Source: a virus
Virus record (IMG/VR): IMGVR_UViG_3300047546_001659
Coordinates: 1-64,000 of that record
DNA: 64,000 nucleotides
Strand: one strand, 5' to 3'
The notes under the pieces were generated by a model. It did not search any database. It was given only the letters and a program-made list of their open reading frames with translations, and had not been told where the DNA came from. Within the stretch, counting starts at the first letter, position 1. Every line of letters begins with the position of its first letter. The translations under genes and the position numbers were made by a program. Below, piece by piece: positions 10,201 through 46,578 of this stretch.

Positions 10201-10201
10201 A

Positions 10202-10909
10202 TTAAGTTAAACCTGCACCGGTTATTATTGCAGCTGAGGCACTAGTATAAAATACCGTACATAAACCTTTTATTCCCAAGGTTCTATTACCAGTTGTAGC
10301 TGCAGATTGGCCTGCCCAATGCATGGTCAATCCAGTACCTTGTGTAATAGTAAGAGCAGCAGTTGTACTGCTATTATGAATTGTTATATTTTCACCTGCA
10401 GTAAAAGTACCTGATGGAATTGTTACCGTTCCACCGGATAAAGAAACTGTTTTACCACTATCTAAATCTATTAAAGTATATCCAGAGGATGATGTATTAA
10501 TTGGCACTTGTCTTAAATTACCAATTCTATCAGAGACAGTATTTGCAGCTGTAAGATTGCCTCTTCTATCTAATATTAAATAATCTCTTGATGCGCCACT
10601 ATTATCTCTCATCCTCCATCTAAAAGATCTATTAGCTGCAAATGTTGCATCACTTGAATAATATATTCCCGTATCATCAAGACCAGTTGTAAGTGTATAA
10701 AATGAAGTAGATTCGTCTGTTCTTAATGCAATACTACCTGCAGGACTCAACACCCTGAATCCACCATCGGAACCATTTGCCCATAAATTTGCACTATGAA
10801 TATGTGCACCTGTAAATGTAAATGATCCAGTAGTATTGACTGCTTCCGAAAGAGAAGCATTAAGATCAGCTGCTGTTAATACATCACCCTGTAAATATGT
10901 TTTTCCCAT
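10202..10909 (-). CDS. Short fibre/adaptor protein
   Basis: N-terminal GDVLTAADLN anchor-like motif; C-terminal ~100 aa domain (MHWAG...TGNRTL..KGLCTV) homologous to the C-terminus of 33210..34868. Confidence 0.6.
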   Translation of the reverse strand: MGKTYLQGDVLTAADLNASLSEAVNTTGSFTFTGAHIHSANLWANGSDGGFRVLSPAGSIALRTDESTSFYTLTTGLDDTGIYYSSDATFAANRSFRWRMRDNSGASRDYLILDRRGNLTAANTVSDRIGNLRQVPINTSSSGYTLIDLDSGKTVSLSGGTVTIPSGTFTAGENITIHNSSTTAALTITQGTGLTMHWAGQSAATTGNRTLGIKGLCTVFYTSASAAIITGAGLT

Positions 10910-10912
10910 CTC

Positions 10913-11272
10913 TTATCCCATTATTAAACCGTTTTCAGGAGGAATATCTGGTCCTCCTAACACTGCAGTTCCTAATCTACCAGCATTTGATGGTGATTCT
11001 AGGGGTGCAAATGATGTAGTACTACCTGCTGTAATTACCGCACGACATCCACAAATACTTCCATCAACTGCTGTAATTTTACCCTCACATTTGAAATTAC
11101 CCGAACCATTTGTAATAGGCGTTACACCATGACCTGGTATTGGGCAAACATGTAAATCACCAACACGTGCTGTCAGGATCCCTTCAGTTCTAGCTGTTGA
11201 GGCGCTTGTTATTATAACACCACCATGACTACTAGAGTCACCTAATCGTGCTATAAGTGATACACTTCCCAT
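10913..11272 (-). CDS. PAAR-repeat spike tip protein (gp5.4-like) with a C-terminal extension
   Basis: ARLGD.SSHGGVI, ARVGDLHVCPIPGHG, ITAVDGSICGC: three PAAR-like repeats with His/Cys Zn ligands, then ~30 extra residues. Confidence 0.88.
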   Translation of the reverse strand: MGSVSLIARLGDSSSHGGVIITSASTARTEGILTARVGDLHVCPIPGHGVTPITNGSGNFKCEGKITAVDGSICGCRAVITAGSTTSFAPLESPSNAGRLGTAVLGGPDIPPENGLIMG

Positions 11273-12823
11273 TTATGCTCCGCCTATAAATTCTAAGGAA
11301 GAAAAAGCCCAGTTATCATTTTGTTTATAACTACCAACCCACTGATTCATAGTATATCTAAAGTATATAGGTGTGTTTTTAATACTATCAGGAAACCCTG
11401 TATATTCTATTTTTGTCCAAACATTAGTAGGTATACTATCTGCTGAGCCTGTTGCAATAGTTATCCAATTAGTATTATCAGTAGAATACTGAAGATAGAA
11501 ATCTTCACCACTATCAGGAGGATCTCCCCATTCACCACCACCTTTATTTAAATAAAATGAAACACCTTTATAGTATCTTAGAGTATAACTATTTGTAGAT
11601 GTAAAGATTCTATTGATACTTGTACTTGTTGATATATCAGTTGCAGTATGACCAAATAATCCAATCTTAACATCTGTTCTGTTTCCCAAAGGATTCATTT
11701 TTCTATTAGGACTAGCCACACCACCTATATTAGCAGAATTGATATTTGAAGGCAATAAAACCTGACTTTGTATACTGTCACCAACCGTATAAGAGGCAGG
11801 ATCATTAAAATTGATAGGACATTGTGGATTTACCGTGACACCTTCCAAAGATGATACTGCCCAGTTATCACCATCATTGTTAATATTATTTGTTGCATCG
11901 TAAGGATTGGTTTGTAATGCTAATAACCTTAACCAAACAGAAGATGATTTGATAGAATCAGGTATTTTAAATGTTATTGGATTCCATCCTGTTGTTCCAG
12001 TTGGAAATGGAGTTGTTTCTTGTAAATTTATCCATGTACTATTATTTGTAGAGTATTGTAAAAATATTGATTCATTGGCAGTTGTTGATCCATAATAACC
12101 AGGAGTGGTTGACCATAATACTGAGGAATCAGGATTTAATATTTGTAAAGCTACTCCAGATGGAGCATACGTATCAGTCAAATTAATTCTTAATATATTA
12201 TAACCAGCAGTAACTGATACAGAGTAGTTTGTACTTGATGTATAATTCAATGAATTTGATACAACCTGTATCCCGTTAATATAAATTACTGCTGAATTGT
12301 CAGAGGATACTGTAAAAGTGTATGTACCAGTTGTAGGAAAATAAATGATTGCAAATAAATTAGCGTTTAAATTGGGGTTAATTGGATCTAAAGTTTCTGG
12401 AAATACTCCATATGTAGTAAAAAAGGTTGAGGGTGTAAATGGTGAATCGTAAGCCTTAAAATTAATATAATATTTCCAGCTCTTTTGATTTATTGAATAC
12501 CAATTATATGATGTAGATAAATCAGGTTGATGGTTACCCCAATCTGCAGGACCATTACCATTTGGTTGGCTAACAAAATATTTTAAATAATCATATCTGG
12601 CAAGACTTACAGCGTTTTTAGTTCGAACAAATCTATATCCATTCTCGCCATATGAATTTACTTTGCTACCAAAAGTACAAATTAAATTAGTAGGATCCCC
12701 CAAAAGGTTACTCATATTGGAGTAATTAAAATGGGGAGATCCTACTTGACTTGGTAGAAAAATATTTGCTGCTGCCCCTAGCGTGTAGGTTGAAGCATCA
12801 GCAAGATTTATTATTTTTGGCAT
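11273..12823 (-). CDS. Putative carbohydrate-binding virion protein: two reelin-subrepeat-like jelly rolls with an inserted PA14-like domain
   Basis: Internal duplication (LQYSTNNSTW / LQYSTDNTNW; PDSIK; DNWAVSSLE / DNWAFSSLE) and a PA14-like segment (FPTTGTYTFTVSSDNSAVIYING...TAGYNILRI). Confidence 0.6.
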   Translation of the reverse strand: MPKIINLADASTYTLGAAANIFLPSQVGSPHFNYSNMSNLLGDPTNLICTFGSKVNSYGENGYRFVRTKNAVSLARYDYLKYFVSQPNGNGPADWGNHQPDLSTSYNWYSINQKSWKYYINFKAYDSPFTPSTFFTTYGVFPETLDPINPNLNANLFAIIYFPTTGTYTFTVSSDNSAVIYINGIQVVSNSLNYTSSTNYSVSVTAGYNILRINLTDTYAPSGVALQILNPDSSVLWSTTPGYYGSTTANESIFLQYSTNNSTWINLQETTPFPTGTTGWNPITFKIPDSIKSSSVWLRLLALQTNPYDATNNINNDGDNWAVSSLEGVTVNPQCPINFNDPASYTVGDSIQSQVLLPSNINSANIGGVASPNRKMNPLGNRTDVKIGLFGHTATDISTSTSINRIFTSTNSYTLRYYKGVSFYLNKGGGEWGDPPDSGEDFYLQYSTDNTNWITIATGSADSIPTNVWTKIEYTGFPDSIKNTPIYFRYTMNQWVGSYKQNDNWAFSSLEFIGGA

Positions 12824-12829
12824 TGCCTA

Positions 12830-13450
12830 TTAGGCACCTAAAAGACTCTTGAACTCTTCAGTGTGTTTTTTGCGATCTTCAAGACCAATTGTTCCGCCGT
12901 TGATCTTTTTTGTAACAGCAGTAACATCGTCTTTATCAGCTAATGCATTAAGACCATTTTTATGCCAGAACCAAGCAGCTGATTCACAAGCACCCTCTGG
13001 AGTCTCAAGATAAAGAGCACATTCTTCAACAGTAATACCCATATCAGAAGCCATTGCTGAGTAGTTATTCTTACCAGTAAGCTGAATCAACCCGCGACCA
13101 CGATAACGGAAACCATCACCTGATGCAGTATCGCCATTACCCATACGTGATGCATAAACTACGTTAGCAATCTTTTCTGGTTGACGAGCATATTCAGCAG
13201 CATTACGTCCAGCATTTTTAAAATATTTTGGAAATACCTTATCAAGACTCTCAGCTGAGTAGTTAAGATTTTCTACAATAGCTCTAAAACCACCAGACTC
13301 GTGTGCAGTCTGAGCAAGGAAATGAGCAAGGCGAAGCGGAGTATTGATTTCATATTTTTCAGCGAAATTATCTAGACTGCCTGCAAGTGCTTTAACAACT
13401 TCTGGCTTTGAACTAGGATAACCGTGTTTAATTTGTTCTTCTGTAAGCAT
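12830..13450 (-). CDS. Glycoside hydrolase family 19 lysozyme/endolysin
   Basis: RLAHFLAQTAHESGGF..VENLNYS, YRGRGLIQLTGKNNY, SAAWFW, VTKKINGGTIGLEDR; GAGGT SD. Confidence 0.93.
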   Translation of the reverse strand: MLTEEQIKHGYPSSKPEVVKALAGSLDNFAEKYEINTPLRLAHFLAQTAHESGGFRAIVENLNYSAESLDKVFPKYFKNAGRNAAEYARQPEKIANVVYASRMGNGDTASGDGFRYRGRGLIQLTGKNNYSAMASDMGITVEECALYLETPEGACESAAWFWHKNGLNALADKDDVTAVTKKINGGTIGLEDRKKHTEEFKSLLGA

Positions 13451-13460
13451 GATCTACCTC

Positions 13461-14936
13461 TTATGTTATAGTATTATTATACATTATAAAAGCAAGTTTA
13501 ACTGTTGGAGGTGTATATGAATAAGTTTGACCTGCTCTTATATTAACTACATTTGCTGCATCTGTAGTATTTAATTTAAATTCTGATACATCCGTCATTG
13601 TGTGAATATGATCAAGTGTATCCTCATATGTATGACTACCAATATCAACAGCAGTCCCTACACCCACTTCCTGACCTGTCAAAGGTCCAAGATGTGAATG
13701 ATTGCCATTAGCTGCCATATCTACTGAATAAATTGTAAATGTATTTGATGAATTTAAAACAACATCGTGATATGTATTTGATGAATCGAAATTAGCATAT
13801 ATGTAATATCCACGAAGATCAGGTGTTTCATTTTCACCATTACAGAAATGCCAATTTACTGGTAACCCAGTTGAATTTGAACTAATACCTTCATATAATG
13901 TGTTTTTACCAATTGAATAACCTATAATTACACCATTTGCAATTGGTGTATTAGCATCAGTTGTAATCCAAGCTTTTAAAATCTTAGATTTCAAACTAAC
14001 ATTTGCAGTATAGGTTACTTGATGTGAATGTGCACCCGCTTCTAATATTTGATAAGCTGTTTGATTATTCTTATCTGATTTATATGTTTTAGCTACAGGA
14101 AATATGTTATGATTATGATTTAAAACAGTATTTGATGGTATAGTAAATGATATTGTATTAGAAAGTTGAATTACTCCATCATTTCCGTCTTTTGCTATTA
14201 GAGGCAATATTTGACCATTTGCTGAATTTATATGATCTGCGTCATCTTGAGAATAATAAGGGCTTGGAAGATTATTGCCAAATACAATTACACCTTTAGG
14301 AAAAAATGATAATTTTGTATCATTATAACCAGTAAAAGTTGTTGTGAGTCTAGGATCCCTTAAGATAGGATCAACTGCAATTGCCTTGATACCTTTTATA
14401 TTTCCATCATCATCTGGTTGTGCAAAAGGAATACCCCTTAACCCATCAGCAATACCTGTCACAACATGTCTATGTGTATCAGTACCTTTTTGTTCATAAT
14501 AAAATGCCGTAGAAGAAGCAGTATCACCTAGCTTATAACCTAAAGCATTGTAGATAGTTGTTCTTCCTAGTGTTGTTGGATTATGAGAGACAGGTTCATA
14601 CAATGTACCTGCGGTATTTGGCATGTCTGTTGTTGCTTCTATACATACACCATTATTATTTGCCCAATCATTGCTTGTATCTATACAAGAAATTACTGGA
14701 TTGCTTTGTAATCCAGATAATGAACCATCGGGTTTATAATATTGAGCAACAGGATAATAAATTTCTGAATATTGTCTATAGTATTCATAATTTAAAGTGC
14801 CTGAAAGTGTGTTGGCAAAATCTTCGTCTTTACCATACCAAAATAATACTGAATACAATGGAATGTAAGGATCTTTACCCTTTGGAGCATTAGCTGTTCC
14901 GTCAGTTCTAATCAATCCTACTTTAGATAAAGGCAT
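13461..14936 (-). CDS. Tail-collar/HxH-motif fibre tip protein
   Basis: Tail-collar motif LPVNWHFCNGENETPDLRG; five HxH metal-binding motifs (HRH, HNH, HSH, HSH, HIH). Confidence 0.6.
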   Translation of the reverse strand: MPLSKVGLIRTDGTANAPKGKDPYIPLYSVLFWYGKDEDFANTLSGTLNYEYYRQYSEIYYPVAQYYKPDGSLSGLQSNPVISCIDTSNDWANNNGVCIEATTDMPNTAGTLYEPVSHNPTTLGRTTIYNALGYKLGDTASSTAFYYEQKGTDTHRHVVTGIADGLRGIPFAQPDDDGNIKGIKAIAVDPILRDPRLTTTFTGYNDTKLSFFPKGVIVFGNNLPSPYYSQDDADHINSANGQILPLIAKDGNDGVIQLSNTISFTIPSNTVLNHNHNIFPVAKTYKSDKNNQTAYQILEAGAHSHQVTYTANVSLKSKILKAWITTDANTPIANGVIIGYSIGKNTLYEGISSNSTGLPVNWHFCNGENETPDLRGYYIYANFDSSNTYHDVVLNSSNTFTIYSVDMAANGNHSHLGPLTGQEVGVGTAVDIGSHTYEDTLDHIHTMTDVSEFKLNTTDAANVVNIRAGQTYSYTPPTVKLAFIMYNNTIT

Positions 14937-14948
14937 TTAAATTCCTAA

Positions 14949-15980
14949 TTATGTAGTTGGGAAACCTTTGGCTGACATCAAACCAAACCAAGTAACACCA
15001 CCATCAAATGTCATAAAGGTAACAAAATCTGTATAATTAGGTTGTGTTGATAGGGTAGGACCATCAGGTGCGTATATACCTTCACCCGCTGGCCAGTAGA
15101 TTGTTTGGTTAGACCAATCTACCGTTCTTCCGCCTGTCGAATCTTGTTTAAGAGCTATGGTCATACTAAATGATTTGCCTGCAACAAGACCAGATGTACC
15201 TAAAGTTATTGCAACAATATCCTGATTTAAAGTAAGAGTTGCAAGATTACCATCAGCAGGATCAACTATAATTGTTGTACCTGAATTACCTTTAGCGTTA
15301 ATCACTTCACTATAATTTTGAAATGAAGGGGCATAGATAGTATTACCACTAAAATTCATTCCAGTTGAAACAGAATTTGTAATATAAGCTCCGGAGTCAA
15401 ATGTGATGCCCGTTGCATTAGCATTTACTCTGAGGAAGAAATTGCCTTTACCAGAATAAGTTTGTGGAACATCTGTTAAGTTGATAAAGGCAAGAGTACC
15501 AGTGGCACCAGTTGAACCTCTGTAACCTACATCACCCTGTGATCCTTTATAACCAACAGAACCCTGGAATCCTTCTGATCCCTGATAACCCTCAGAACCT
15601 TTATATCCTTCTGATCCTTGATATCCAGCAGAGCCCTGATAACCCAAATTACCTGCAGAACCTGTATAGCCAACAGATCCCATATAGCCCGTATCACCTA
15701 ATGAACCCTGATATCCTGAAACGCCTACAGGCCCATCTGGTCCAGTTGAGCCTGTAAATCCTGTTGTTCCTTGTGATCCAGTAAATCCAGCAGACCCTCT
15801 ATAACCAGCAGAACCAGTATAACCTGTTAATTCAGATAATGGCTTTCCTAAGATAGCCATAACTGCATTATTAGACCAATACGGACCCTGTGATCCAATT
15901 ACAATAAGAGATCCTACATCGGCCTGACCGCCGGTAGAATTAGCTGTATCTATCTGGGAAACATAAATTTTGGTAGCCAT
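14949..15980 (-). CDS. Collagen-like fibre protein with a C-terminal beta domain
   Basis: ~110 aa of G-X-Y repeats (GYTGSA/GYQGSE); C-terminal domain ending PTLSTQPNYTDFVTFMTFDGGVTWFG, shared with 26398..26946. Confidence 0.75.
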   Translation of the reverse strand: MATKIYVSQIDTANSTGGQADVGSLIVIGSQGPYWSNNAVMAILGKPLSELTGYTGSAGYRGSAGFTGSQGTTGFTGSTGPDGPVGVSGYQGSLGDTGYMGSVGYTGSAGNLGYQGSAGYQGSEGYKGSEGYQGSEGFQGSVGYKGSQGDVGYRGSTGATGTLAFINLTDVPQTYSGKGNFFLRVNANATGITFDSGAYITNSVSTGMNFSGNTIYAPSFQNYSEVINAKGNSGTTIIVDPADGNLATLTLNQDIVAITLGTSGLVAGKSFSMTIALKQDSTGGRTVDWSNQTIYWPAGEGIYAPDGPTLSTQPNYTDFVTFMTFDGGVTWFGLMSAKGFPTT

Positions 15981-16015
15981 ATTAAATCCTGGTTGACTAA
16001 ATTATTATATGATAC

Positions 16016-16023
16016 TATTTATA
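16016..16023 (-). promoter_or_regulatory. T4-type late promoter TATAAATA for the fibre gene starting at 15980
   Basis: TATTTATA on the plus strand in the divergent intergenic region. Confidence 0.7.
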
Positions 16024-16045
16024 CTGCCAAATATAACAATTTAGG

Positions 16046-16074
16046 TTGCATAGATAATACATATATTTTATAAT
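16046..16074 (+). promoter_or_regulatory. Sigma70-like promoter of the heptose operon
   Basis: TTGCAT (16046-51), 17-nt spacer, TATAAT (16069-74); GAGGT SD at 16084-88; ATG at 16096. Confidence 0.7.
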
Positions 16075-16095
16075 GGTTAAATTGAGGTAATTTAT

Positions 16096-17250
16096 ATGAT
16101 TTGTGTCATTGGTGATTTTATATCTGATATTTATGTGTATGGTGAAATAAACAGGATTTCACCCGAATCTCCCATACCAATCTTCAAAAAAATGAATGAA
16201 GAGATCAGGCAAGGTGGCGCTGGCAATGTTGTTGCCAATTTAAAAGCTCTCGGAATAGACCCAAAAACATTTGGTTCTAACAATTCATCAAAATACAGAT
16301 TTGTAGTTGATAAACACATTTTATTTCGTATGGATGATGAAAATTATGTTGCTAATATTGATAAACCTAGTTATAATTTAAATGATGTCAATTACGTAAT
16401 AATATCAGATTATAATAAAGGATATCTGCATAATAGTCAAGAGATAATCAATTACTGTAAGAATAATAATTGTTTTGTTATAGTGGATCCTAAGAAATCA
16501 ATTGATAATTATAAAAATGTAGATATTGTTAAACTCAATGAAAAAGAATTAAAAGAGTATTGTTCTTCATATAACAATATTGAAGATATTTTAATTGATA
16601 ATAATATTGGATGTTTAATAGTTACTAAAAGTGCTGATGGAGCTATTATTCACACCCTCAATAATACTATAGAAATTGAAGCAGAACAACACCAGGTATC
16701 TGATGTAACAGGTGCTGGTGATATTTTTATTGCTGTGCTTACATATTTTTTAAATAAAGGAAATGATCTTGAAAGTGCTGTAAGAAAAGCAGTAAAACTT
16801 GCAAGTATATCAGTTACTAAATTTGGCACTTATACTTTACAGCCTGAAGATATTAAAAAAGCATATACTGTTTTTACTAATGGATGTTTTGATATTATTC
16901 ACAAAGGTCATGTTGAATATCTCAAAAAATCAAAACAACTTGGTGATAAATTAATTGTTGGTTTAAATTCTGATTCTTCAGTTAAAAGATTAAAGGGTGA
17001 AGATAGGCCTGTTAATAATCAACAGGATAGAAAAGCTGTTTTAGAATCACTAGATTGTGTAGATGAAGTTATTATTTTTGATAACGATACACCCTATGAA
17101 CTTATTAAGAGTATTCAACCCGATATTATTACAAAGGGTGGTGACTATACATCGAATACTGTTGTTGGTAATGATCTTGCTGATGTTGTTATTATTCCTT
17201 ATGTAGAAGGTTATTCAACTAGTAAAATTTTGGAGAAATCAGTTGGTTAA
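16096..17250 (+). CDS. hldE: Bifunctional heptose-7-phosphate kinase / heptose-1-phosphate adenylyltransferase (HldE/RfaE-like)
   Basis: PfkB half: RISPESPIP, GGAGNVVANL, ISDYNKG, VDPK, DVTGAGD. Nucleotidyltransferase half: VFTNGCFDIIHKGH, VGLNSDSSVKRLKGEDRP, KGGDY, GYSTS. Confidence 0.93.
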   Translation: MICVIGDFISDIYVYGEINRISPESPIPIFKKMNEEIRQGGAGNVVANLKALGIDPKTFGSNNSSKYRFVVDKHILFRMDDENYVANIDKPSYNLNDVNYVIISDYNKGYLHNSQEIINYCKNNNCFVIVDPKKSIDNYKNVDIVKLNEKELKEYCSSYNNIEDILIDNNIGCLIVTKSADGAIIHTLNNTIEIEAEQHQVSDVTGAGDIFIAVLTYFLNKGNDLESAVRKAVKLASISVTKFGTYTLQPEDIKKAYTVFTNGCFDIIHKGHVEYLKKSKQLGDKLIVGLNSDSSVKRLKGEDRPVNNQQDRKAVLESLDCVDEVIIFDNDTPYELIKSIQPDIITKGGDYTSNTVVGNDLADVVIIPYVEGYSTSKILEKSVG

Positions 17251-17602
17251 AAGAATTGTTGAAAAGGGTTGGGGTAAAGAAATAATATTTGCCAATCATC
17301 CTGAATATTGCGGCAAACTCTTAATATATGATAATGAAGGTTCAACAAGTTCCATGCATTTTCATAAAGATAAAAAAGAATCTTGGTATGTCTTACAGGG
17401 ATCTTTTGAATATAAAACTATAGATACATCAACAGGTAAAGTTCAATCAAGTATTATGTACCAAGGTGATACATGTACAAACTTTCCTTTATTGATTCAT
17501 CAATTAATTGCATTAGAATCAAACTCGATAATTATAGAAACCTCTACTTACGATAGTGGTGAAGATAATTATAGGGTTATTCCAGGAGATAGTCAAAAGT
17601 GA
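17243..17602 (+). CDS. Cupin-fold sugar(-phosphate) isomerase (type II PMI / D-lyxose isomerase-like)
   Basis: KGWGKE, SMHFHKDKKESWYV, later His (LIHQL): cupin HxH-x4-E...H metal site. TTG start with GGAG SD, overlapping the hldE stop. Confidence 0.75.
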   Translation: MVKRIVEKGWGKEIIFANHPEYCGKLLIYDNEGSTSSMHFHKDKKESWYVLQGSFEYKTIDTSTGKVQSSIMYQGDTCTNFPLLIHQLIALESNSIIIETSTYDSGEDNYRVIPGDSQK

Positions 17603-17910
17603 AATACTTAGTAGATATAGACGGAACAATATGTTCTCTAACAGATGGTAAATATGAAGAAGCAATACCTTTTGTTGATAGAATAAAATATTTAAATGAA
17701 ATGTATGATAAGGGTCATACAATTGTTTATTGGACCGCAAGAGGTGGCAATTCTGGTAAAGATTGGTCATTGTTAACCAAGCAACAGTTATTTGATTGGA
17801 ATGTAAAATATAATGAATTGCTATTTAATAAGCCAACATACGATATATGGATTGATGATAAAGCAATGAACGCAGAAAGATTCTTTGATGATATTGATAA
17901 CTGGGTATAA
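17599..17910 (+). CDS. Small capless HAD phosphatase (EcbF/BcbF capsule-biosynthesis phosphatase-like)
   Basis: HAD motifs VDIDGT, WTARG, NKP, IDDK; GTGA start/stop overlap with the cupin gene; AGGAG SD. Confidence 0.8.
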   Translation: MKYLVDIDGTICSLTDGKYEEAIPFVDRIKYLNEMYDKGHTIVYWTARGGNSGKDWSLLTKQQLFDWNVKYNELLFNKPTYDIWIDDKAMNAERFFDDIDNWV

Positions 17911-18664
17911 AGGGTTTATTGGCAGTAATCTTATAAAAAGATTTAAACCTGAAGATCTTATTTTGGTTGGATATGAAGATTGTTTTTCTTCTTTATTTTT
18001 AACTGATTGGTCTAAGGTAACCAAGATATATCATTTAGGTGGCATAAGTGATACTACATGTAGTGATTTAAATTTACTACATGAATACAATGTAAACTTT
18101 ACTATGGAATTATTCAATCGTGCTAAAATACATAATATCCCTATCGTTTATGCTTCTTCAGCTTCTGTATATGGTAATAGCCTTACATATACTCCTAACC
18201 CATTGAACCATTATGCAATATCTAAAGCTAATGTTGATATATGGGTAGAATCTAATTATAAAGATTTTAAAAATATCATCGGTGTTAGATTTTTTAATGT
18301 TTATGGTGATGGTGAAGATCATAAAGGAAATCAAGCTTCACCAATTCATCAATTTACTTTGCAGGCTAAACAAAATAAAAACATAAAAGTTTTTGAAGGG
18401 TCTGATAATTTTATTAGAGATTTTATTTGGGTTGAAGATGCTATTGATTGTATAATTGAAGATAAACATTCTGGCATATATGACGTAGGAACATCAAAAC
18501 CCGTATCATTTAGATTCATAGCTGATTTGATAGCAAAGAAATATAATTGTTCTGTAGAAGAAATAAAATTTCCGGAAAAATTAAGGCACAAGTATCAATT
18601 CTATACATGTGCCCGTAAACATTATAATAAACAATTTATGGATGTTAGAGAATACTTAAAATAA
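17888..18664 (+). CDS. hldD: ADP-L-glycero-D-manno-heptose 6-epimerase-like extended SDR (HldD/GmhD/RfaD)
   Basis: ITGYKGFIGS, YASSASVYG, PLNHYAISK (YxxxK), RFFNVYG..EDHKG..AS, RDFIWVED, KYQFYT match the HldD pattern; ATG at 17888 preferred over TTG at 17885. Confidence 0.85.
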   Translation: MILITGYKGFIGSNLIKRFKPEDLILVGYEDCFSSLFLTDWSKVTKIYHLGGISDTTCSDLNLLHEYNVNFTMELFNRAKIHNIPIVYASSASVYGNSLTYTPNPLNHYAISKANVDIWVESNYKDFKNIIGVRFFNVYGDGEDHKGNQASPIHQFTLQAKQNKNIKVFEGSDNFIRDFIWVEDAIDCIIEDKHSGIYDVGTSKPVSFRFIADLIAKKYNCSVEEIKFPEKLRHKYQFYTCARKHYNKQFMDVREYLK

Positions 18665-18665
18665 A

Positions 18666-19376
18666 TTATCTTTCATCACCAATATTTTCTTCTTTTAAAC
18701 TTACATTCTTTTTACGATTAACAATTGTTGTACCTTCAAATTTATCATAAGCAAATAATCCGGCTTGTGATATATTAAATATATCTGCTCTAAGAACAAC
18801 ATCAAGGGATTCGCATATACCTCTTTGTATAGTATGAGCAACTAAGTTTTTTGCAATCTGCGGATCTATTGCATAGGCATGAGCTCTACAAATAAAATGG
18901 TAATTGTGATTTAAAGTACCGTGCGGAGGTATATTAATTATTGGCATGGTACCTTTTTGTTGTTCTAAGCTTCCTAGATAAACAATAGTGTTATATCCGG
19001 TATGATACAAATAAGGTTTTATCATTACCGCGTCATGTTCTAAGATCACAATTGGCTTATCTAATTCAATACATCTTGTCCATAAAGAAAAATGACTTAG
19101 ATAACAAGCTATCTCAGTGATAGAAAGATGGTGATCAAATACCTTCAGCCATTTTAAATGATTTGAATTTTTTGAATGTTCAGGTATCTTAATAGAGACA
19201 TTATCAGTACCGTCAAAGGCATCCCAAACCTGATAAGGCATTCTTATATTTTCACATGAATGTTGACATCTCAGAGATAATTTCTCAGACTGCATGTGAT
19301 CTTTAATAGTTATGATATAGGCAGATTCTACTCCTATATCATAACTATATTGCAATGATTTTGATAAATCAATCAT
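18666..19376 (-). CDS. GT25-like glycosyltransferase
   Basis: AYIITI, AFDG, EIACYLSHFSLW, IVILEHDA, AHAYAI..QIAKNL: the GT25 (Lex2B/LgtB) pattern. Confidence 0.8.
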   Translation of the reverse strand: MIDLSKSLQYSYDIGVESAYIITIKDHMQSEKLSLRCQHSCENIRMPYQVWDAFDGTDNVSIKIPEHSKNSNHLKWLKVFDHHLSITEIACYLSHFSLWTRCIELDKPIVILEHDAVMIKPYLYHTGYNTIVYLGSLEQQKGTMPIINIPPHGTLNHNYHFICRAHAYAIDPQIAKNLVAHTIQRGICESLDVVLRADIFNISQAGLFAYDKFEGTTIVNRKKNVSLKEENIGDER

Positions 19377-19379
19377 TTA

Positions 19380-21170
19380 TTATCTTTTAAAGACTGTTTT
19401 TTCAGCTCGAGCTTTATCTAATTCATCTCTGAAGAATTTAATTTTTTCAGTCTTCAAATCTTCTTTGCCATATCTTCCTGGTTTATGAACTTGCACAAGC
19501 ATCTTAGTACTTAATATGATATTGCTAAGATGATTCATTCCATATTCTAATTGAGATCTCAAAGCATCGGGTTCAACCTTATCTTTATTTTTTTCAATCA
19601 GATTATGCCAAGCATCTGTATATTCATATTCAACATCCACCAATTCAATATCAACATCATTTAAGAAAGCAAGATAAGAATCGGAACTTCCCGCTAGAAT
19701 TTTTTCATAATTTAATTTCATATCAAACATTCTAATAGTGCTTGGTGTAATAGTTCTTACATGTGATGGGTCATCCCAATAAATTTCACAACGATGATGT
19801 GGAACTTGAATTTCCCATAGTGCACCATTATCAGAGATTCTATACATCTCCTTAATGATATCAGTAAATGATACACCATCATGACCAAGATGCTCAAGAA
19901 TATCTTTAGCAACAATGTGCATATATTCATCATCAGGCCATGGCCATTTTTTAGAATTTAGATCAACAACTTCATCTGGATTGCAAATTTCTGAGTAGTC
20001 AACATTATGGAAATCATCAAACTTTTTAAATCCACAACCAATATTCAATCTTCTTACTTCTTTATCTCTTGAAGGAAGATCAACATGTTCAAGATTAAAC
20101 TTTCTTTCTAGTTCTTTATAAAGAATTTGGAAGGTGTTATTCCATACATCTTTTTGTTCTTGTCTAAAGAGAGTAACACTTTCATAGTAAGGTGTCTTAA
20201 TAGAATAAGGTGCATTCAAAGCCCACGTGTGATAAGGTAACAATGGAGTTATAATCCATGTTTCTTTACCAAGAGCTGCAGAGGCATGAGCTACTGCTGT
20301 GCAACTTGTAATAACTAAATCTAAATTAGAAATAGCAGCAAGTGTATCATCCCAGGTATTGATTTGATCTTTAAGGTCAATAATTTCTTCCGGAAGATTT
20401 ACAAGATTGTTATCACGTTGTAAAGAATATAATTGAATTTCTTTATATTCAGAAAGTTGTGTTAAGAAATTAACTGGAAATCTTCTGAATTGCTGATGTT
20501 CAAATTTAGGATTACCAGCCCATCTAATACCAACTTTATATTTCTTATCCGTCTTAATAATATCTTTCCAGCTTTCTACCATATCAGGTAAAGCAGTCAA
20601 ATAGGGATTACCAGGAAAATCTTCAAATGTATATCCACAAATCCATCCTGCACTAAATCCTGGAATCCAGAAATCATGAGGAACAGTATTTGATTCCATT
20701 CTGGAAATACATTTTTCAACACCGTCAATTCTTGAGATAATAGAAGCAAGCTGAGGATCACAAGCTACATAAACATGATTTGCTTTAAGTTTACGCTTGA
20801 GTGATGTTGCAAATCTTGCATGAATCAATTCATCACCGAGACCACCTTCAAGTGATAGAATAATATTCTTGCCTTCTAAAGAATGTTCATTTGGATTATA
20901 GATTGGTGCTGTAGTTCTTAGTGGAGGACTGCCGTAGACATTAATGAATCTACCATTTTCTAACAATTCACAACCTTCACGATATTTGTTCTGTTGTAAC
21001 AAAAACCATCCACGATTGAAGCTGTGTCGAATCCACATTTCAGGATTTGGTTTGCCTTCAGGATCTAATATACCCTGAGGTCCTAAGCTTTGCAATTCTT
21101 CTGAAATTTTCCAGGCTTCATCAAACTTGCCTTCAAGCATCAATTTAAGTTGTAAATCAATCTTATGCAT
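19380..21170 (-). CDS. TPR-like + GT-B (GT9/FlmG-like) glycosyltransferase fused to a class I SAM methyltransferase
   Basis: Helical N-terminus; EGGLGDEL, KVGIRWAGNP, LYSLQ, DTLAAISNLDLVITSCTAVAHASAALG; C-terminal RLNIGCG...DILEHL...EMYRI...VPH...DPSHVR. Confidence 0.82.
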   Translation of the reverse strand: MHKIDLQLKLMLEGKFDEAWKISEELQSLGPQGILDPEGKPNPEMWIRHSFNRGWFLLQQNKYREGCELLENGRFINVYGSPPLRTTAPIYNPNEHSLEGKNIILSLEGGLGDELIHARFATSLKRKLKANHVYVACDPQLASIISRIDGVEKCISRMESNTVPHDFWIPGFSAGWICGYTFEDFPGNPYLTALPDMVESWKDIIKTDKKYKVGIRWAGNPKFEHQQFRRFPVNFLTQLSEYKEIQLYSLQRDNNLVNLPEEIIDLKDQINTWDDTLAAISNLDLVITSCTAVAHASAALGKETWIITPLLPYHTWALNAPYSIKTPYYESVTLFRQEQKDVWNNTFQILYKELERKFNLEHVDLPSRDKEVRRLNIGCGFKKFDDFHNVDYSEICNPDEVVDLNSKKWPWPDDEYMHIVAKDILEHLGHDGVSFTDIIKEMYRISDNGALWEIQVPHHRCEIYWDDPSHVRTITPSTIRMFDMKLNYEKILAGSSDSYLAFLNDVDIELVDVEYEYTDAWHNLIEKNKDKVEPDALRSQLEYGMNHLSNIILSTKMLVQVHKPGRYGKEDLKTEKIKFFRDELDKARAEKTVFKR

Positions 21171-21232: not shown

Positions 21233-24200
21233 TTATCTGGAACTTACAAATACTGTTGCTGAATCTCTCGTTGAGCTAGCAAATATTGACACCCACTTAT
21301 TAGAAGTTCCAATTTGAACAGGTGTTGTTTTCCATGCAGCTGTTGCATTGTCACCTGCTAAACCATATGAATTCTTACCCCATGACCAAAGTGTACCATC
21401 AGCTTTAATACCAATTATTGTGTAACTAACGTCAGCTGCAACTGTTGAACCAATAGCATAAACTTGTTTCCACTTAGCCGATGAACCAATAATTGTAGGT
21501 GAAGATTGTACTGTATTAGTTAAAATAGGAGGTCTGAAACCACCTATTCTTCCCCAACCCATTAATAAACCATCATAATTGATACCGAAAATTGATCCTT
21601 CACTCGCTGTAATATATTTATAGTGTTGCATATAATAGTCTTCAGTGTTTTTATATCCTGACTGAATTGAAACAGGAGATCCCTTACCAAATACGTTACC
21701 CCACCAATAAACATAATCATCAGCACCTATAGCAACACCGACACTTTCACCAATAGATGCTGATTTAAATTTTTGAATGCCAGTTCTGGTTACAGTAGGT
21801 TTAGTAATTTGTGTATCTAATCTATCATTTTTACCCCATACACCTGTACTATTATCAGTACCCCACTGTAATAAATTGCCGTACACGTCAACACCAATAT
21901 TTAAATTTTGTATTTGACTAATTGAAGTAAATGGTGCAAGACCGTTTGGTAGTGTCTGAAGAGTGTTGTTGCTATTTGTAATAGCAGCATTCCAGTGATA
22001 CTGTAATCCGTTGACATTATTTGCAAACCCACCATATGCACCCAATTGATTCCATTTAGTTAACCCAAGACTAGTCCAAGAACCTTCCCAACTAGGTAGG
22101 CTTAAATTTGTATCAACAATATTATAATTATAATGTCCTACCAATGCGTCATATGGTACATATACTCCTCCATGCCATCCTGCAACAGCTAATTTATTAT
22201 TCTGTGATGGATCTTTAATAAACACAAAAGGTTGATCATATGTTCCAGAATCTGAATTATTTTCAGTTCCAAAATTATTTGGACCTAGTGGATATGTTTT
22301 AGAAAATTCTAATAATTTTGGCCAAGGTATTGGTGCACCGGCACTTCCTGAGTAATTATAAATGTTGTTTGCATAACCTGCAATGTTTGTACCAATATTT
22401 AATTCTGTTGGTGCTAATTCAGCACTCTGAACTGATGCTCTAGAAGTGGCAGTTTTACCATTCATTCTATCTGCCATATATCCAGTGACAAATGCTTTTC
22501 CTTCACTATCAAAAAGAATAGATGTATGGTTAGCACTACACCACACTGAAACCCATTGTGATGCTAAAGCTGTGCCCGCTATACCGGATATACCTACTAA
22601 AACTGGTGAAGATCTATTAATTGTACTATTATCACCCAATGCTCCTCTACCATTATATCCCCAACCCCAAGCCTGTCCACCAGTATCAATTGCAATATTG
22701 TGATACTGGCCTGCTGACATAAAGGTAAATGAAGTACCCGATTTAACTTGAATTGGTGAAGATTTATTTACTGTAGTACTATCACCAAGTTGTCCCTGAT
22801 CATTCGTACCCCAAGTCCATAGTTTACCAAGAGTATCTAATGCTAACGCCCCGGCAGCTCTTGCCTTTACAAGTACAAAACTTGTTCCCGCCATAAGCTG
22901 AACAGGTGATGATCTAGAAATAGTAGTTGTATCACCTAATCTACCATCACCATTATAACCCCAAGCCCACAACTGACCTAAACTATTTAAAGCAAATGTT
23001 GTAGCACTACCGGTTACAATATCAGTCCAATTATTTGCTGTTCCAATTTGAACAGGTGATGATCTGTTAGTTAATGCACCAAGAGTTTGGGCTAATTCAC
23101 CATTACCATTATATCCCCAACCCCATATAGTACCATCAGTTCTAATTCCCACTTTATGAATATTATGACCGGCAAATTTACTCCATTTACCAGGCAATTT
23201 TCTAAAATATGAAAATGTAGGACGAGATAACTGAGTTGCTGCTATAACATCAAGATCCACGTTAAAAGATAAAGACTCACCATAACCATCATATCCCTTA
23301 AACCACAAATCATCATTATTATCAACAACAAATATACTTTCGTAGTTAATTACAGTTCTTGATGATATCTGCTTAACTGACAAATCTTGACTATAAAGTA
23401 CATCAAATCCATTTATATCGTTACAATATGTCCATGTATCCCAATTTGATGTATAACGACCATGTCCTAAACCTTTGAATCCTAAGAAACCACCTGAGGG
23501 ATGATTATATCCTGAAGCTATGACTCTACCATCAACAGTTAGACCAAAGAAATTAGTATCATTGCCAGCAATAGCAGTAAAACTTGAACCAGCAAAAATT
23601 TGAACTGGTGAATAATACACACTATATGGTCCATATTTGGGTTTTATTTCACCACCACTATTTGCTCCCCACCCCCATACTGTACCATCTGATCTTAGTG
23701 CAGCCACAGCACTATGTTTAGTCGCAATAGCAGTATAACTATAAAAATTTAAAGGAACATAATCAAATAAGAAATTATAGATAGTTACGGTGTTGTTATT
23801 TTGCCAAGCAAATCTACCCGAGCCTGAAGATCCTATTAATTTAAGAACACCAGGTTGATCAGATCTTACCAGTCCCTGAACTGATAATAATGCAACACTG
23901 CTCACAGCATACACTTGTGTCAATGATGATCTTCTACCTAAAGAACCCGTTGGATCTGTACTCCAATCATCACCAAGTGGTTGTGAAGTTGTATTTTCAC
24001 CTGTTGCCCAAACAGTTCCGTCACTACGAAGAGCCCAATATTGTCTACCAGAATAACTATGTGCAACTTGTGTATAAGACGAAGAAGAAATAAGAACAGG
24101 GGATGATCTTTGTAATGTAGTACCATCACCAACTGATCCTTGGCTGTTTTCACCCCAGGCCCATAATCTACCGTTGATATCAATAGCTGTAGCAGTAGAT

Positions 24201-25903
24201 ATACCCGCTTTAACAATAGTAAATGAAGATCCACCAGCAATTTGAATTGGTGAAGATTTGTTTATAGTAGTGTTATCACCAAGTTGACCAACGTGGTTTC
24301 TTCCCCAGGCGTATAATTTACCTACTGTATCAATTGCATAACTTGAATCAAAGGATACACCAACATAAACAAAACTTGTACCTGCTAAGACTTGTACTGG
24401 TGAAGACTTATTAATAGTAGTATTATCGCCTACTTGACCATATGCATTATACCCAAATCCCCACAGTTTATAAGTAGAATCAATGGCCATAGTATGAGAT
24501 GGACCGGTTGCAACAAAATTAAAACTAGTACCTGATTTAACTTGAATTGGTGAAGATTTATTTACAGTTGTACTATCACCAAGTTGTCCTAGGTTATTAG
24601 AACCCCATATGAATAGTTTACCATCTGTTCGAATAGCTGCTGCAATTTTTTCAACATAATTTCCAATAGAAACAAAATTCCAAGATCCTCCGACCTGTGT
24701 AGGAGAAGATCGATCAATGGTTGTACTCTGACCCAATTGACCTTTATCACTTCCTCCCCACATCCATAATGTATAATCATCTTTGATTGCAGCACAATAA
24801 TAATCATCGGTTGCTATAGCTCTGTAGAATTTTGCAGTACCAGAAACATTGTATCCGATCTGCATAGGGCTTTTATAAGATGCAGATCCATATGGGGTTG
24901 TTCCATATCCTGACCCCCAGACCCACAATCCGTTGTTTGCAGAATCAATAGCAACCGTATGCCCGCCACCAAGATTTGAGGCTAATACAGCTGTCCAGCT
25001 TCCTGCAACCTGTGTAGGAGCATTTCTTAATATGGTTGTACCATCACCAAGAGCATATGTACCATTATATCCCCAACCCCATAATGTTCCATTTGTTCTA
25101 AGTGCAACAACATGTGAAGCCCCTGCATGAACAAAATTATATGAAGCACCTACGTTAATGGCAGTTTCTGTAAGAGCTCCTGAACCAGTACCACCATTAC
25201 CAATCATGCCAATAGAGTTGTTTCCTAAAGCATAAAGTTGATAATTGCTGTCAATGTAATGGATCGTTCTATAGCTGGGCGCATACCAAATATAATTAGT
25301 TGTTGCGTAGATATATGATTTATTTGTAACCTGAACAGGTGAAGATCTATTTGTACCTGAATTATCACCAAGTTGATTGTTGTTATTTAAACCCCAGGCC
25401 CAAAGTGTACTATCTGATCTGATTGCAGATGCAGCAGAACCAGATGCATTAATAGAGTTCCATGATCCTGGAACTTGCACTGGTGATGATCTATTGATAG
25501 TGGTAATATCACCCAATTGACCAACAGTATTTAATCCCCAAGTATAAATTTTACTATTATAATCTAAGGCAACAAAGAAGTTATTACCGGCAACAAGATC
25601 TTTAAATTTTGAGGCACTGATCTGAACTGGTGAAGACCTATCAATGGTTGTATTATCACCCACTTGCCCACTTGAATTTCTTCCCCAACCCCATAATGTA
25701 CCGTCAGTCTTGATTGCGGCAGCTGCTTCACCACCATTGACAACTTTTTTCCAAGTACCAGAAATTAAAACAGGACTTGATCTAGTTGCAACACTATAGG
25801 TTCCATCCCAGATTTGATAGAAGGCAGAAGCACCCCAACCATATACGTTGGAGTAACCTACAGTTGAAGAACCATCACCAGCAAGTAAAAAATTATTAAA
25901 CAT
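21233..25903 (-). CDS. Large RCC1/BLIP-II repeat beta-propeller protein, putative receptor-binding cap
   Basis: Many repeats of [L/V]W[GAT]WG.N..GQLGD.TTI[N/D][R/K]SSP[V/I]Q across 1556 aa. Confidence 0.88.
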   Translation of the reverse strand: MFNNFLLAGDGSSTVGYSNVYGWGASAFYQIWDGTYSVATRSSPVLISGTWKKVVNGGEAAAAIKTDGTLWGWGRNSSGQVGDNTTIDRSSPVQISASKFKDLVAGNNFFVALDYNSKIYTWGLNTVGQLGDITTINRSSPVQVPGSWNSINASGSAASAIRSDSTLWAWGLNNNNQLGDNSGTNRSSPVQVTNKSYIYATTNYIWYAPSYRTIHYIDSNYQLYALGNNSIGMIGNGGTGSGALTETAINVGASYNFVHAGASHVVALRTNGTLWGWGYNGTYALGDGTTILRNAPTQVAGSWTAVLASNLGGGHTVAIDSANNGLWVWGSGYGTTPYGSASYKSPMQIGYNVSGTAKFYRAIATDDYYCAAIKDDYTLWMWGGSDKGQLGQSTTIDRSSPTQVGGSWNFVSIGNYVEKIAAAIRTDGKLFIWGSNNLGQLGDSTTVNKSSPIQVKSGTSFNFVATGPSHTMAIDSTYKLWGFGYNAYGQVGDNTTINKSSPVQVLAGTSFVYVGVSFDSSYAIDTVGKLYAWGRNHVGQLGDNTTINKSSPIQIAGGSSFTIVKAGISTATAIDINGRLWAWGENSQGSVGDGTTLQRSSPVLISSSSYTQVAHSYSGRQYWALRSDGTVWATGENTTSQPLGDDWSTDPTGSLGRRSSLTQVYAVSSVALLSVQGLVRSDQPGVLKLIGSSGSGRFAWQNNNTVTIYNFLFDYVPLNFYSYTAIATKHSAVAALRSDGTVWGWGANSGGEIKPKYGPYSVYYSPVQIFAGSSFTAIAGNDTNFFGLTVDGRVIASGYNHPSGGFLGFKGLGHGRYTSNWDTWTYCNDINGFDVLYSQDLSVKQISSRTVINYESIFVVDNNDDLWFKGYDGYGESLSFNVDLDVIAATQLSRPTFSYFRKLPGKWSKFAGHNIHKVGIRTDGTIWGWGYNGNGELAQTLGALTNRSSPVQIGTANNWTDIVTGSATTFALNSLGQLWAWGYNGDGRLGDTTTISRSSPVQLMAGTSFVLVKARAAGALALDTLGKLWTWGTNDQGQLGDSTTVNKSSPIQVKSGTSFTFMSAGQYHNIAIDTGGQAWGWGYNGRGALGDNSTINRSSPVLVGISGIAGTALASQWVSVWCSANHTSILFDSEGKAFVTGYMADRMNGKTATSRASVQSAELAPTELNIGTNIAGYANNIYNYSGSAGAPIPWPKLLEFSKTYPLGPNNFGTENNSDSGTYDQPFVFIKDPSQNNKLAVAGWHGGVYVPYDALVGHYNYNIVDTNLSLPSWEGSWTSLGLTKWNQLGAYGGFANNVNGLQYHWNAAITNSNNTLQTLPNGLAPFTSISQIQNLNIGVDVYGNLLQWGTDNSTGVWGKNDRLDTQITKPTVTRTGIQKFKSASIGESVGVAIGADDYVYWWGNVFGKGSPVSIQSGYKNTEDYYMQHYKYITASEGSIFGINYDGLLMGWGRIGGFRPPILTNTVQSSPTIIGSSAKWKQVYAIGSTVAADVSYTIIGIKADGTLWSWGKNSYGLAGDNATAAWKTTPVQIGTSNKWVSIFASSTRDSATVFVSSR
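22740..24589. repeat. Near-identical 56-bp direct repeat inside the RCC1 gene
   Basis: 22740-22795 and 24534-24589 match at 54/56 positions by manual alignment; both lie within GQLGDSTTVNKSSPIQVKSGTSF. Confidence 0.85.
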
Positions 25904-34871: not shown

Positions 34872-39836
<4,965 letters not shown>

Positions 39837-46558: not shown

Positions 46559-46578
46559 TTTTTATAATGAGGTATATT

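Follow-up and report, generated by a model that had tools for sequence, protein, structure and literature searches.

ADP-heptose is made by a textbook pathway of five steps, which is a target for antibiotics and gives rise to an innate-immune agonist. To our knowledge, GmhA is regarded as the sole entry enzyme of this pathway. The window analysed here is a stretch of 64,000 nucleotides from the virus record IMGVR_UViG_3300047546_001659 (118,011 bases; 69% complete according to CheckV). It contains a four-gene cassette that would follow the same five-step logic as the bacterial ADP-L-glycero-beta-D-manno-heptose pathway (GmhA, HldE or HldA plus HldC, GmhB and HldD). Kinase, nucleotidyltransferase (NTase) and epimerase are homologous to their bacterial counterparts. 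However, unrelated or distantly related proteins are predicted to stand in for two of the five enzymes, HldE is shorter by about 90 residues and the set is encoded by viruses and Patescibacteria. The two predicted replacements are a small cupin and a capless HAD phosphatase (mini-HAD hereafter). Judging from sequence comparisons, the cupin is probably a non-homologous, metal-dependent sedoheptulose-7-phosphate isomerase that replaces GmhA, and the mini-HAD a GmhB analogue. A self-contained viral route to ADP-heptose would be the best explanation of the cassette.

GmhA (TIGR00441, PF13580) and the cupin would share both reaction and pathway position, and the cupin occurs in the slot of GmhA beside the heptose-7-phosphate kinase, where GmhA is found in 16 out of 21 Patescibacteria. 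Their folds differ, as the cupin is a beta-barrel of 119 residues with a His3-Glu metal site, whereas GmhA is an alpha/beta protein of the SIS fold with about 190 residues. Aldose-ketose isomerases with a cupin fold have been described (PF01050; PF07385, structure 7nzo; the archaeal phosphomannose isomerase (PMI) 7zvy; 1j3p). Fold, His/His/Glu/His motif and manno-configured products would be common to these enzymes and the window cupin, although the latter scores under the curated cut-offs and its substrate would be a heptulose phosphate. It is also smaller than the D-lyxose isomerase LyxI, and it stands alone, whereas the PMI domain is part of GDP-mannose pyrophosphorylases. WbuC (TIGR04366) and the CapF cupin domain (2zkl) are, like the window protein, metal cupins of sugar-nucleotide gene clusters. 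They act on UDP-keto-sugars with an SDR partner. In contrast, the window cupin is under the WbuC cut-off, follows the kinase and the NTase, not the SDR, and swaps with GmhA.

The mini-HAD is homologous to AfhF (9iqw), 1xpj and TIGR01689, and shares with them a capless mini-HAD architecture and, with AfhF, a phage origin. According to PMC13326640, AfhF is Mg-dependent and converts arabinose-1,5-bisphosphate into arabinose-1-phosphate in DNA hypermodification. Its substrate, a sugar 1,omega-bisphosphate, loses the distal phosphate after the anomeric kinase step and before the nucleotidyltransferase step. By analogy, this is the same chemical logic as that of GmhB. The window protein is shorter (103 residues) and would act on heptose-1,7-bisphosphate. 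GmhB (HisB-N type) and the mini-HAD would catalyse the same reaction, and they share the HAD superfamily and its four core motifs, but the mini-HAD belongs to a different subfamily, has about 80 residues fewer and lacks the Cys-rich Zn loop.

The cassette consists of four open reading frames (ORFs):

16096..17250, plus strand: HldE-like bifunctional kinase/nucleotidyltransferase, 384 residues, with PfkB and CTP_transf_like domains (model NF008454)
17243..17602, plus strand: single-domain cupin, 119 residues, TTG start, predicted sedoheptulose-7-phosphate isomerase (GmhA analogue)
17599..17910, plus strand: capless HAD phosphatase, 103 residues, GTG start, of the 1xpj/AfhF/TIGR01689 type
17885..18664, plus strand: HldD-like extended SDR, 259 residues, alternative ATG start at 17888, predicted ADP-heptose 6''-epimerase

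A sequence-only reading of the window had described these ORFs, with hldE and hldD flanking overlapping cupin and HAD genes, and every detail that could be checked was borne out. Read from the sequence, the overlaps measure 8 nt, 4 nt (GTGA) and 23-26 nt, and Shine-Dalgarno sites (GGAG or AGGAG) lie 7-10 nt before the cupin and HAD starts. That reading had assigned the GmhA step to the cupin and the GmhB step to the mini-HAD. All comparative tests that we ran supported this prediction: the near-exclusion between cupin and GmhA in viral loci, the displacement of GmhA in Patescibacteria, the cupin fusions, the affinity of cupin sequences to manno-specific aldose-ketose isomerases of the cupin fold, and the position of AfhF as nearest characterised relative of the mini-HAD.

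Sedoheptulose-7-phosphate is a ketose of the pentose phosphate pathway. The cupin, with a divalent metal bound by His39, His41, Glu46 and His86, would isomerise it to D-glycero-D-manno-heptose-7-phosphate via an enediolate. This would be the GmhA reaction on an unrelated fold, and the C7 homologue of the reactions of cupin mannose-6-phosphate and D-lyxose/D-mannose isomerases. The kinase (PfkB) half of the compact HldE would, by homology, then phosphorylate O1. The mini-HAD, if it behaves as its homologue AfhF does, would take off the 7-phosphate in the manner of GmhB. The nucleotidyltransferase half of HldE would, again by homology, produce a nucleoside diphosphate (NDP)-heptose, most likely ADP-heptose because an arginine linked to promiscuity is absent. 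Finally, the HldD-like SDR would epimerise C6''. No carbonyl is left after phosphorylation of O1, so a metal-enediolate cupin working without an oxidoreductase would be limited to sedoheptulose-7-phosphate or heptose-7-phosphate.

Linkage to heptose genes and near-exclusion of GmhA

Three sets of viral loci were compared: NTase-selected (the best 80 of 561 matches), GmhA-selected (the best 80 of 235) and cupin-selected (20). The cupin was present in 71 of the 80 NTase-selected loci. Seven of the nine loci without it are cut by a contig end, and in the other two (L081 and L117) the cupin is not in the fetched stretch. Conversely, an HldE kinase and/or NTase was encoded at most 6 kb away in 18 of the 20 cupin-selected loci. 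The association of the cupin with HldE is not a chance arrangement. Gene order varies (kinase/NTase-cupin-HAD-SDR, NTase-cupin-kinase-SDR, kinase/NTase-SDR-cupin and SDR-kinase/NTase-cupin), and therefore the linkage is not one frozen block. A giant-virus record of 204 kb (L013), with a match to the major capsid protein of nucleocytoplasmic large DNA viruses over its cut-off (46.4 bits), encodes HldE and a HAD-cupin fusion, with no SIS_2 match.

The same gene set is carried by the cultured cyanophages P-SSM2 and P-TIM68. As regards their hosts, cyanobacterial lipopolysaccharide is described as free of heptose (PMC4515613). In their GenBank records (L001, 8379-9060; L002, 8837-9606), the mini-HAD is annotated as 'phosphoheptose isomerase' and the cupin as 'cysteine dioxygenase'. 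The PHROGs matched by the window proteins bear the same names: phrog_7851 for the cupin and phrog_1238, mislabelled, for the mini-HAD. Labels in both resources look swapped or wrong. The kinase half of the HldE-like protein corresponds to phrog_8133, labelled 'unknown function'.

GmhA was searched for with a hidden Markov model (HMM) built from seven cellular GmhA ORFs, which found all 80 of the 80 loci used as a positive control. This HMM retrieved no match in the 100 NTase-selected and cupin-selected loci. At the level of whole virus records, SIS_2 was detected in none of 58, namely the window record and 57 others with the cupin. These records include the complete P-SSM2 and P-TIM68 genomes and others that are 100%, 100% and 99% complete. 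The absence of gmhA from the window, pointed out in the sequence-only reading, thus extends to the whole 118,011-base record, in which SIS_2 is absent (CheckV completeness 69%). In the opposite direction, 23 of the 80 GmhA-selected viral loci contained an HldE kinase or NTase, and the cupin was found in two of those 23 (L180 and L192).

In these two phage contigs, an SIS-type GmhA and an NTase-cupin pair lie within 6 kb of each other (L180, 9983-15748; L192, 9971-16016). A chaperonin gene separates GmhA from the pair in L192, where a ferredoxin-like gene immediately follows the cupin.

Fusions provided further evidence of linkage. Mini-HAD-cupin fusions of about 217-240 residues accounted for 120 out of the 120 longer homologues listed, of 287 found, and such a fusion was present in 12 of the 20 cupin-selected viral loci. 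A search with the protein of a patescibacterial genome (G469) retrieved 108 clusters of kinase-cupin fusions (about 430-465 residues, PfkB plus Cupin_2, most with PF01050). All named clusters among them were labelled as Patescibacteria lineages. One cupin-NTase fusion was detected (P0289), and no cupin-SDR fusion was seen in the fusion samples. Since the cupin is fused to enzymes of steps 2, 3 and 4, it appears to belong inside the core pathway. Two HAD-cupin proteins, P0226 (482 residues) and P0259 (484 residues), have an extra domain of about 250 residues without a recognised Pfam family, N-terminal in the former and C-terminal in the latter.

Patescibacteria provide independent evidence on GmhA and the cupin. 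Among 251 sampled genomes, 21 had a TIGR02198 kinase at E ≤ 1e-20. GmhA was detected in 17 of these 21, directly beside the kinase in 16 and 2.6 kb away in one. The remaining four genomes differ from one another. G307 encodes the cupin (E 5.6e-38) directly beside the kinase, in the order SDR-cupin-kinase, where G331 has SDR-GmhA-kinase. In G469, the kinase (residues 18-313) and the cupin (325-429) form a single ORF of 441 residues, followed by the NTase and HldD. The kinase of G455 lies on an uninformative 2.6-kb contig, and G483 has no cupin either. In two GmhA-positive Patescibacteria, weaker cupin matches (58 and 38 bits) lie well away from the kinase. The gene order in G307 supports a displacement of GmhA by the cupin in its own slot.

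The cupin was also found in 28 species genomes from many phyla, with an HldE kinase or NTase in the same locus in 13 of them. GmhA (TIGR00441) scored at least 185 bits in seven of the 28, 110-122 bits in three, and was weak or absent in 18. Strict exclusion between GmhA and the cupin in cellular genomes was consequently rejected, given the seven scores of at least 185 bits. Gram-negative genomes with their own lipopolysaccharide (LPS) pathway can hold both genes. Co-occurrence of the cupin with the rfaE domain II NTase (27 of 28 genomes) was considered and dropped, as 99 of 151 sampled genomes from the phylum of one of them (G013) have this NTase. In that sample (G084-G233), the 99 genomes encode a stand-alone version of about 170 residues over the TIGR02199 cut-off. 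The cupin was present in G013 alone among the 151.

Properties of the four proteins

The metal site of the cupin (His39-x-His41-x4-Glu46...His86) is invariant at all four positions in an alignment of 58 relatives with 43-80% identity. In total, 18 residues are invariant: K8, W10, G11, E13, Y22, K25, S37, H39, H41, K44, E46, W48, G53, F55, H86, E99, D108 and R111. Pfam matches remained sub-threshold, with 21.7 bits for Cupin_1 (cut-off 22) and a weak Cupin_2 match. An AlphaFold (AF2) model with a predicted local distance difference test (pLDDT) score of 95.2 is all-beta, and many cupins match it at Z 12-15. Going by the modelled double-stranded beta-helix fold and the G(X)5HXH(X)3-4E and H motifs, the window protein belongs to the cupin superfamily. 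Its own family is large: thresholds of E ≤ 1e-30 and E ≤ 1e-10 gave 130 and 2,548 representative clusters, respectively. The alignment of this family with GmhA indicated unrelated families (hhalign probability 0.2%), and no SIS match was found for the cupin.

Structural matches of the cupin model include a 112-residue Thermococcus PMI, KdgF, quercetinase, D-lyxose isomerase and cupin phosphoglucose isomerase. The CapF cupin domain is at the top (Z 15.3), followed among the named entries by 7zvy (14.5), 7nzo (14.0) and 1j3p (12.6). Reading the function from the fold was rejected, as Foldseek and VIA returned generic cupins tied within about 1-2 Z (CapF, CENP-C, PMI, KdgF, quercetinase and LyxI). 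A search of PDB sequences with the cupin family profile was uninformative, matching oxalate decarboxylases (E 3e-5) and a D-lyxose isomerase (E 0.076). Scanned singly at E ≤ 0.01, the relatives matched WbuC (53/58), Lyx_isomer (39/58), MannoseP_isomer (30/58) and GMP_PMI (29/58). Some more distant relatives pass the Pfam cut-offs for PF01050 (C-terminal part of type II PMI) and PF07385 (D-lyxose isomerase).

The four HAD motifs are visible in the mini-HAD (DIDGT, WTARG, NKP and IDDK), and D6-x-D8-G-T10, T46, K78 and D86-D87 are conserved in an alignment of 52 sequences. The protein holds a single cysteine and thus has no Cys-rich Zn loop. Its model has a pLDDT of 85.1, and HAD structures head the Foldseek list. 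The mini-HAD is therefore a member of the HAD superfamily phosphatases. The top Foldseek match is 9iqw, deposited as 'phage HY126 encoded D-arabinose 1,5-diphosphate phosphatase AfhF' (32-35% identity), and ranks 1-5 are all entries of the 9iqw/1xpj type. In agreement, phmmer against PDB sequences returned 9iqw (E 4.1e-11) and 1xpj (E 6.9e-7). TIGR01689 gave 26.6 bits against a cut-off of 162. No GmhB model in NCBIfam matched the mini-HAD at E ≤ 0.01; GmhB structures appear in the Foldseek results at E 0.009-0.05.

The mini-HAD was also found beside a canonical GmhA and two SDRs in 15 of the 80 GmhA-selected viral loci. The combination of GmhA, mini-HAD and two SDRs occurs without an HldE-type kinase match in L159, L161, L166, L168-L171, L200, L202, L215 and L216. 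These loci may represent another NDP-heptose route, for example of the GDP-heptose or deoxy-heptose type.

The HldE-like protein combines a PfkB-type heptose-7-phosphate kinase (residues 1 to about 255) with a cytidylyltransferase-like heptose-1-phosphate NTase (about 256-384). Both domains were recognised on one chain by Pfam, PF00294 PfkB with 92.7 bits (cut-off 25.8) and PF01467 CTP_transf_like with 76.9 bits (cut-off 21), and the GAGD and HxGH motifs are visible. The best NCBIfam model was NF008454 HldE (301.1 bits, E 1.2e-89, cut-off 521), while TIGR02198 gave 183.6 bits (cut-off 345) and TIGR02199 gave 176.8 bits (cut-off 181.5). Based on these scores, we regard it as a compact, divergent HldE-like protein under the NCBIfam equivalog cut-offs. 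It aligns to HldA (4e84) and HldC (5x9q) of Burkholderia. Compared with Burkholderia HldA, about 35 residues of the kinase lid are absent between the N-terminal strand region and the core, which accounts for its compactness (384 residues for a model of 475 positions). The SDR shows the GxxGxxG (TGYKGFIGS) and YxxxK (YAISK) motifs, with 195.3 bits (E 1.4e-57) for TIGR02197, under the cut-off of 274.6, and 86.2 bits for Epimerase PF01370. The best models of the kinase, the NTase and the SDR are all heptose-specific (E 5e-54, 2e-52 and 1e-57, respectively).

The hallmark of promiscuous STTR5-type nucleotidyltransferases, according to PMC11573728, is (F/L)XXGRSTT, with a diagnostic arginine at position 5, before STT. 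The counterpart in Burkholderia HldC is FEHDRSTT. The window sequence reads YVEGYSTS, with tyrosine at position 5. At the same position, 12 cupin-linked NTases have Y, Q, L, L, L, Y, Y, F, Y, K, Y and R. The sequence-only reading correctly gave a compact HldE of 384 residues with the C-terminus ...PYVEGYSTSKILEKSVG, but the lysine versus arginine distinction that it drew there was misplaced: the lysine follows STS, and the diagnostic position holds tyrosine. Absence of the arginine fits an enzyme without marked promiscuity towards nucleoside triphosphates, without proving ADP specificity.

Weighing of alternative explanations

Several observations weigh against the assignment of the cupin and the mini-HAD to the GmhA and GmhB steps. 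The two sets of 80 viral loci are best-scoring subsets with shared ancestry, so their counts are not independent events and represent a pattern, not a probability. GmhA and the cupin coexist in L180 and L192, and a strong GmhA match is present in seven of the 28 cellular cupin genomes, including four of the 13 with a cupin-kinase cluster. The mutual exclusion that the sequence-only reading suggested testing is strong, but it fails as a strict rule. No heptose genes were found within about 8 kb at 15 of the 28 cellular cupin loci, of which 13 are Pfam-annotated and show mixed contexts. The contrast in Patescibacteria is small, with the cupin beside or fused to the kinase in 2/4 genomes without GmhA versus 0/17 with it (Fisher p = 6/210, approximately 0.03). 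Moreover, the mini-HAD is absent in 67 of the 80 NTase-selected loci, and therefore the phosphatase step would often be left to other enzymes.

Family scores add to these points. HldE, HldD and the mini-HAD all score under the NCBIfam equivalog cut-offs, and thus the exact identity of the sugar is not proven. As for the window cupin, it lies under every family-specific cut-off: Lyx_isomer gives 15.2 bits versus 20.8, PF01050 is unlisted at E ≤ 10, and the best named match is WbuC with 30.9 bits versus a cut-off of 42. Both WbuC and CapF, whose cupin domain is the top structural match, are NDP-sugar tailoring proteins. In addition, the host of the window phage could supply GmhA.

The main rival explanation builds on these last points. 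The cupin would be a tailoring enzyme acting after nucleotide activation, for example a CapF/WbuC-like epimerase on a keto-intermediate of the SDR, and host GmhA would isomerise sedoheptulose-7-phosphate. Besides the WbuC match, which is the best in NCBIfam for the window cupin and for 53 of its 58 relatives, and the CapF score in VIA, this explanation draws on the HldD-like SDR found with the cupin in 72 of the 80 NTase-selected loci and on the coexistence of GmhA and cupin in two viral loci and at least seven of 28 cellular genomes. However, the cupin stays with the kinase and the NTase where the fetched stretch shows no SDR (16 viral loci and the cellular loci L034, L045 and L047). It is fused to kinase, phosphatase and NTase, with no SDR fusion in the samples, and it occupies the slot of GmhA in G307. 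SIS domains are missing from all 58 virus records, including that of the giant virus, and phosphomannose and D-lyxose isomerases come within about 1 Z of the CapF match, in effect a tie. Considering all of this, we find a tailoring role unlikely. A cupin without a catalytic role in the pathway, be it a regulator, a chaperone that binds sugars or the product of an unrelated moron gene travelling with the cassette, is scarcely credible. Such a passenger would suit the 15 of 28 cellular loci without heptose genes nearby, but it is at odds with the invariance of the metal site and of 18 residues among the 58 relatives (43-80% identity), and with a linkage and three kinds of fusion that persist across phages, giant viruses and Patescibacteria.

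Alternatively, the same four-step logic of isomerase, anomeric kinase, distal phosphatase and nucleotidyltransferase might operate on a different ketose phosphate and lead to another NDP-sugar or another heptose stereoisomer instead of ADP-D/L-glycero-manno-heptose. Apart from the sub-cut-off scores of HldE, HldD and the mini-HAD, this is consistent with the shortened kinase, with the weak affinities of the cupin for hexose and pentose isomerases, and with AfhF, the characterised relative of the mini-HAD, whose substrate is a pentose bisphosphate and which belongs to a UDP-arabinose pathway of the same logic (PMC13326640). The kinase/NTase and the SIS isomerase of that arabinose pathway come from unrelated families, according to the same paper, which argues against a different sugar here. 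The heptose-specific best models of kinase, NTase and SDR point the same way, as does the swap between cupin and GmhA beside orthologous kinases in Patescibacteria. An HldD-type 6''-epimerase, furthermore, makes sense solely for a sugar with a C6 stereocentre, i.e. a heptose. We therefore consider a different sugar improbable, and keep the cupin as the predicted sedoheptulose-7-phosphate isomerase.

Genomic setting and significance

PHROG matches (portal, sheath, tube, terminase, baseplate wedge and many collagen-like fibre genes) identify the window as the structural module of an uncultured T4-like myovirus, with nearly all structural genes on the minus strand. Its portal shares only 50-57% identity with the portals of cultured T4-like phages that infect Stenotrophomonas and Synechococcus. 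At the DNA level, the epimerase alone matched cultured phages (65-73% identity). The cassette is bordered by a collagen-like fibre gene and a GT25 gene. It runs opposite to every flanking structural gene, and within its first 39 kb the window has no other plus-strand block. The guanine-plus-cytosine (GC) content reaches the window minimum of 28.5% at 16001-18000, compared with 34-37% in the bins of 12001-16000 and 30.5% at 18001-20000. This lowest GC coincides with a positive GC skew, as expected for an inserted cassette. A scan of 15800-19500 gave no sigma-70 promoter signal (31 sites versus 26.7 +/- 4.5 expected) and no terminator at the end of the heptose operon.

Two genes for candidate consumers of the product follow the cassette:

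18666..19376, minus strand: GT25-family glycosyltransferase, convergent with the operon (Glyco_transf_25, 62.8 bits)
19380..21170, minus strand: two-domain protein of 596 residues with a GT9-like N-terminal part and a methyltransferase-like region (Atlas clusters, PHROG)

GT25 homologues adjoin heptose genes in eight out of 80 viral loci, as well as in L033, a cellular locus. The 596-residue protein has a PHROG methyltransferase match at residues 367-490, with no Pfam match even at E ≤ 10 and no NCBIfam match. The Atlas clusters nearest to its N-terminal part (about 365 residues) have Glyco_transf_9 in 10-94% of their members. This GT9-like resemblance gives a lead only, towards a candidate heptosyltransferase. 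Homologues of the protein occur in 23 of the 80 NTase-selected viral loci and adjoin the cluster in the cellular loci L032 and L033. The GT25 and GT9-like/methyltransferase proteins probably consume the product of the cassette, and the acceptor could be the host surface or the virion fibres.

Four collagen-repeat (G-X-Y) fibre proteins are encoded on the minus strand (14949-15980, 33213-34868, 34875-39836 and 42133-46503), two of them with more than 1400 residues. These would be candidate acceptors if heptose is transferred to virion proteins. The only other long plus-strand gene of the fibre module (46567-49350) encodes 928 residues, in which GT1/GT4-like and GT2 glycosyltransferase domains are joined by a third, weakly glycosyltransferase-like C-terminal region. 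It may be a second glycan-building enzyme. In the tail-fibre region, adjoining a tail-fibre assembly gene, a minus-strand gene (21233-25903) encodes a protein of 1556 residues with RCC1-like repeats (PHROG 'regulator of chromosome condensation', E 1e-79). Three further minus-strand products lie between the head-tail connector and the fibre genes (9319-11272): a 293-residue protein with long glycine runs and no PHROG match, a 235-residue protein without a match and a PAAR-like protein of 119 residues.

A wider interpretation is possible, although we put it forward tentatively. The cupin would represent a second, hitherto unrecognised class of sedoheptulose-7-phosphate isomerase and, together with the AfhF-like mini-phosphatase and the shortened HldE, would define a distinct 'viral-type' ADP-heptose pathway prevailing in T4-like phages, giant viruses and Patescibacteria. 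In the window phage, the GT9-like/methyltransferase and GT25 proteins would place the product on virion fibres or on the surface of the infected cell and thereby change recognition. A full-text search, which did not extend to the primary paper on viral heptose enzymes and supplements, found no publication linking a cupin to the GmhA step.

If the predicted function of the cupin and the mini-HAD is true, an isomerase of 119 residues and a phosphatase of 103 residues would be handy parts for the enzymatic synthesis of NDP-heptoses. The labels 'cysteine dioxygenase' for the cupin and 'phosphoheptose isomerase' for the phosphatase would be wrong in GenBank cyanophage records and in PHROGs. Scoring heptose capacity by the presence of GmhA would miss hundreds of viral and Patescibacteria lineages. 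Viruses of bacteria and eukaryotes could then make a bacterial-type sugar donor from a universal intermediate of the pentose phosphate pathway, with no need of help from the host.

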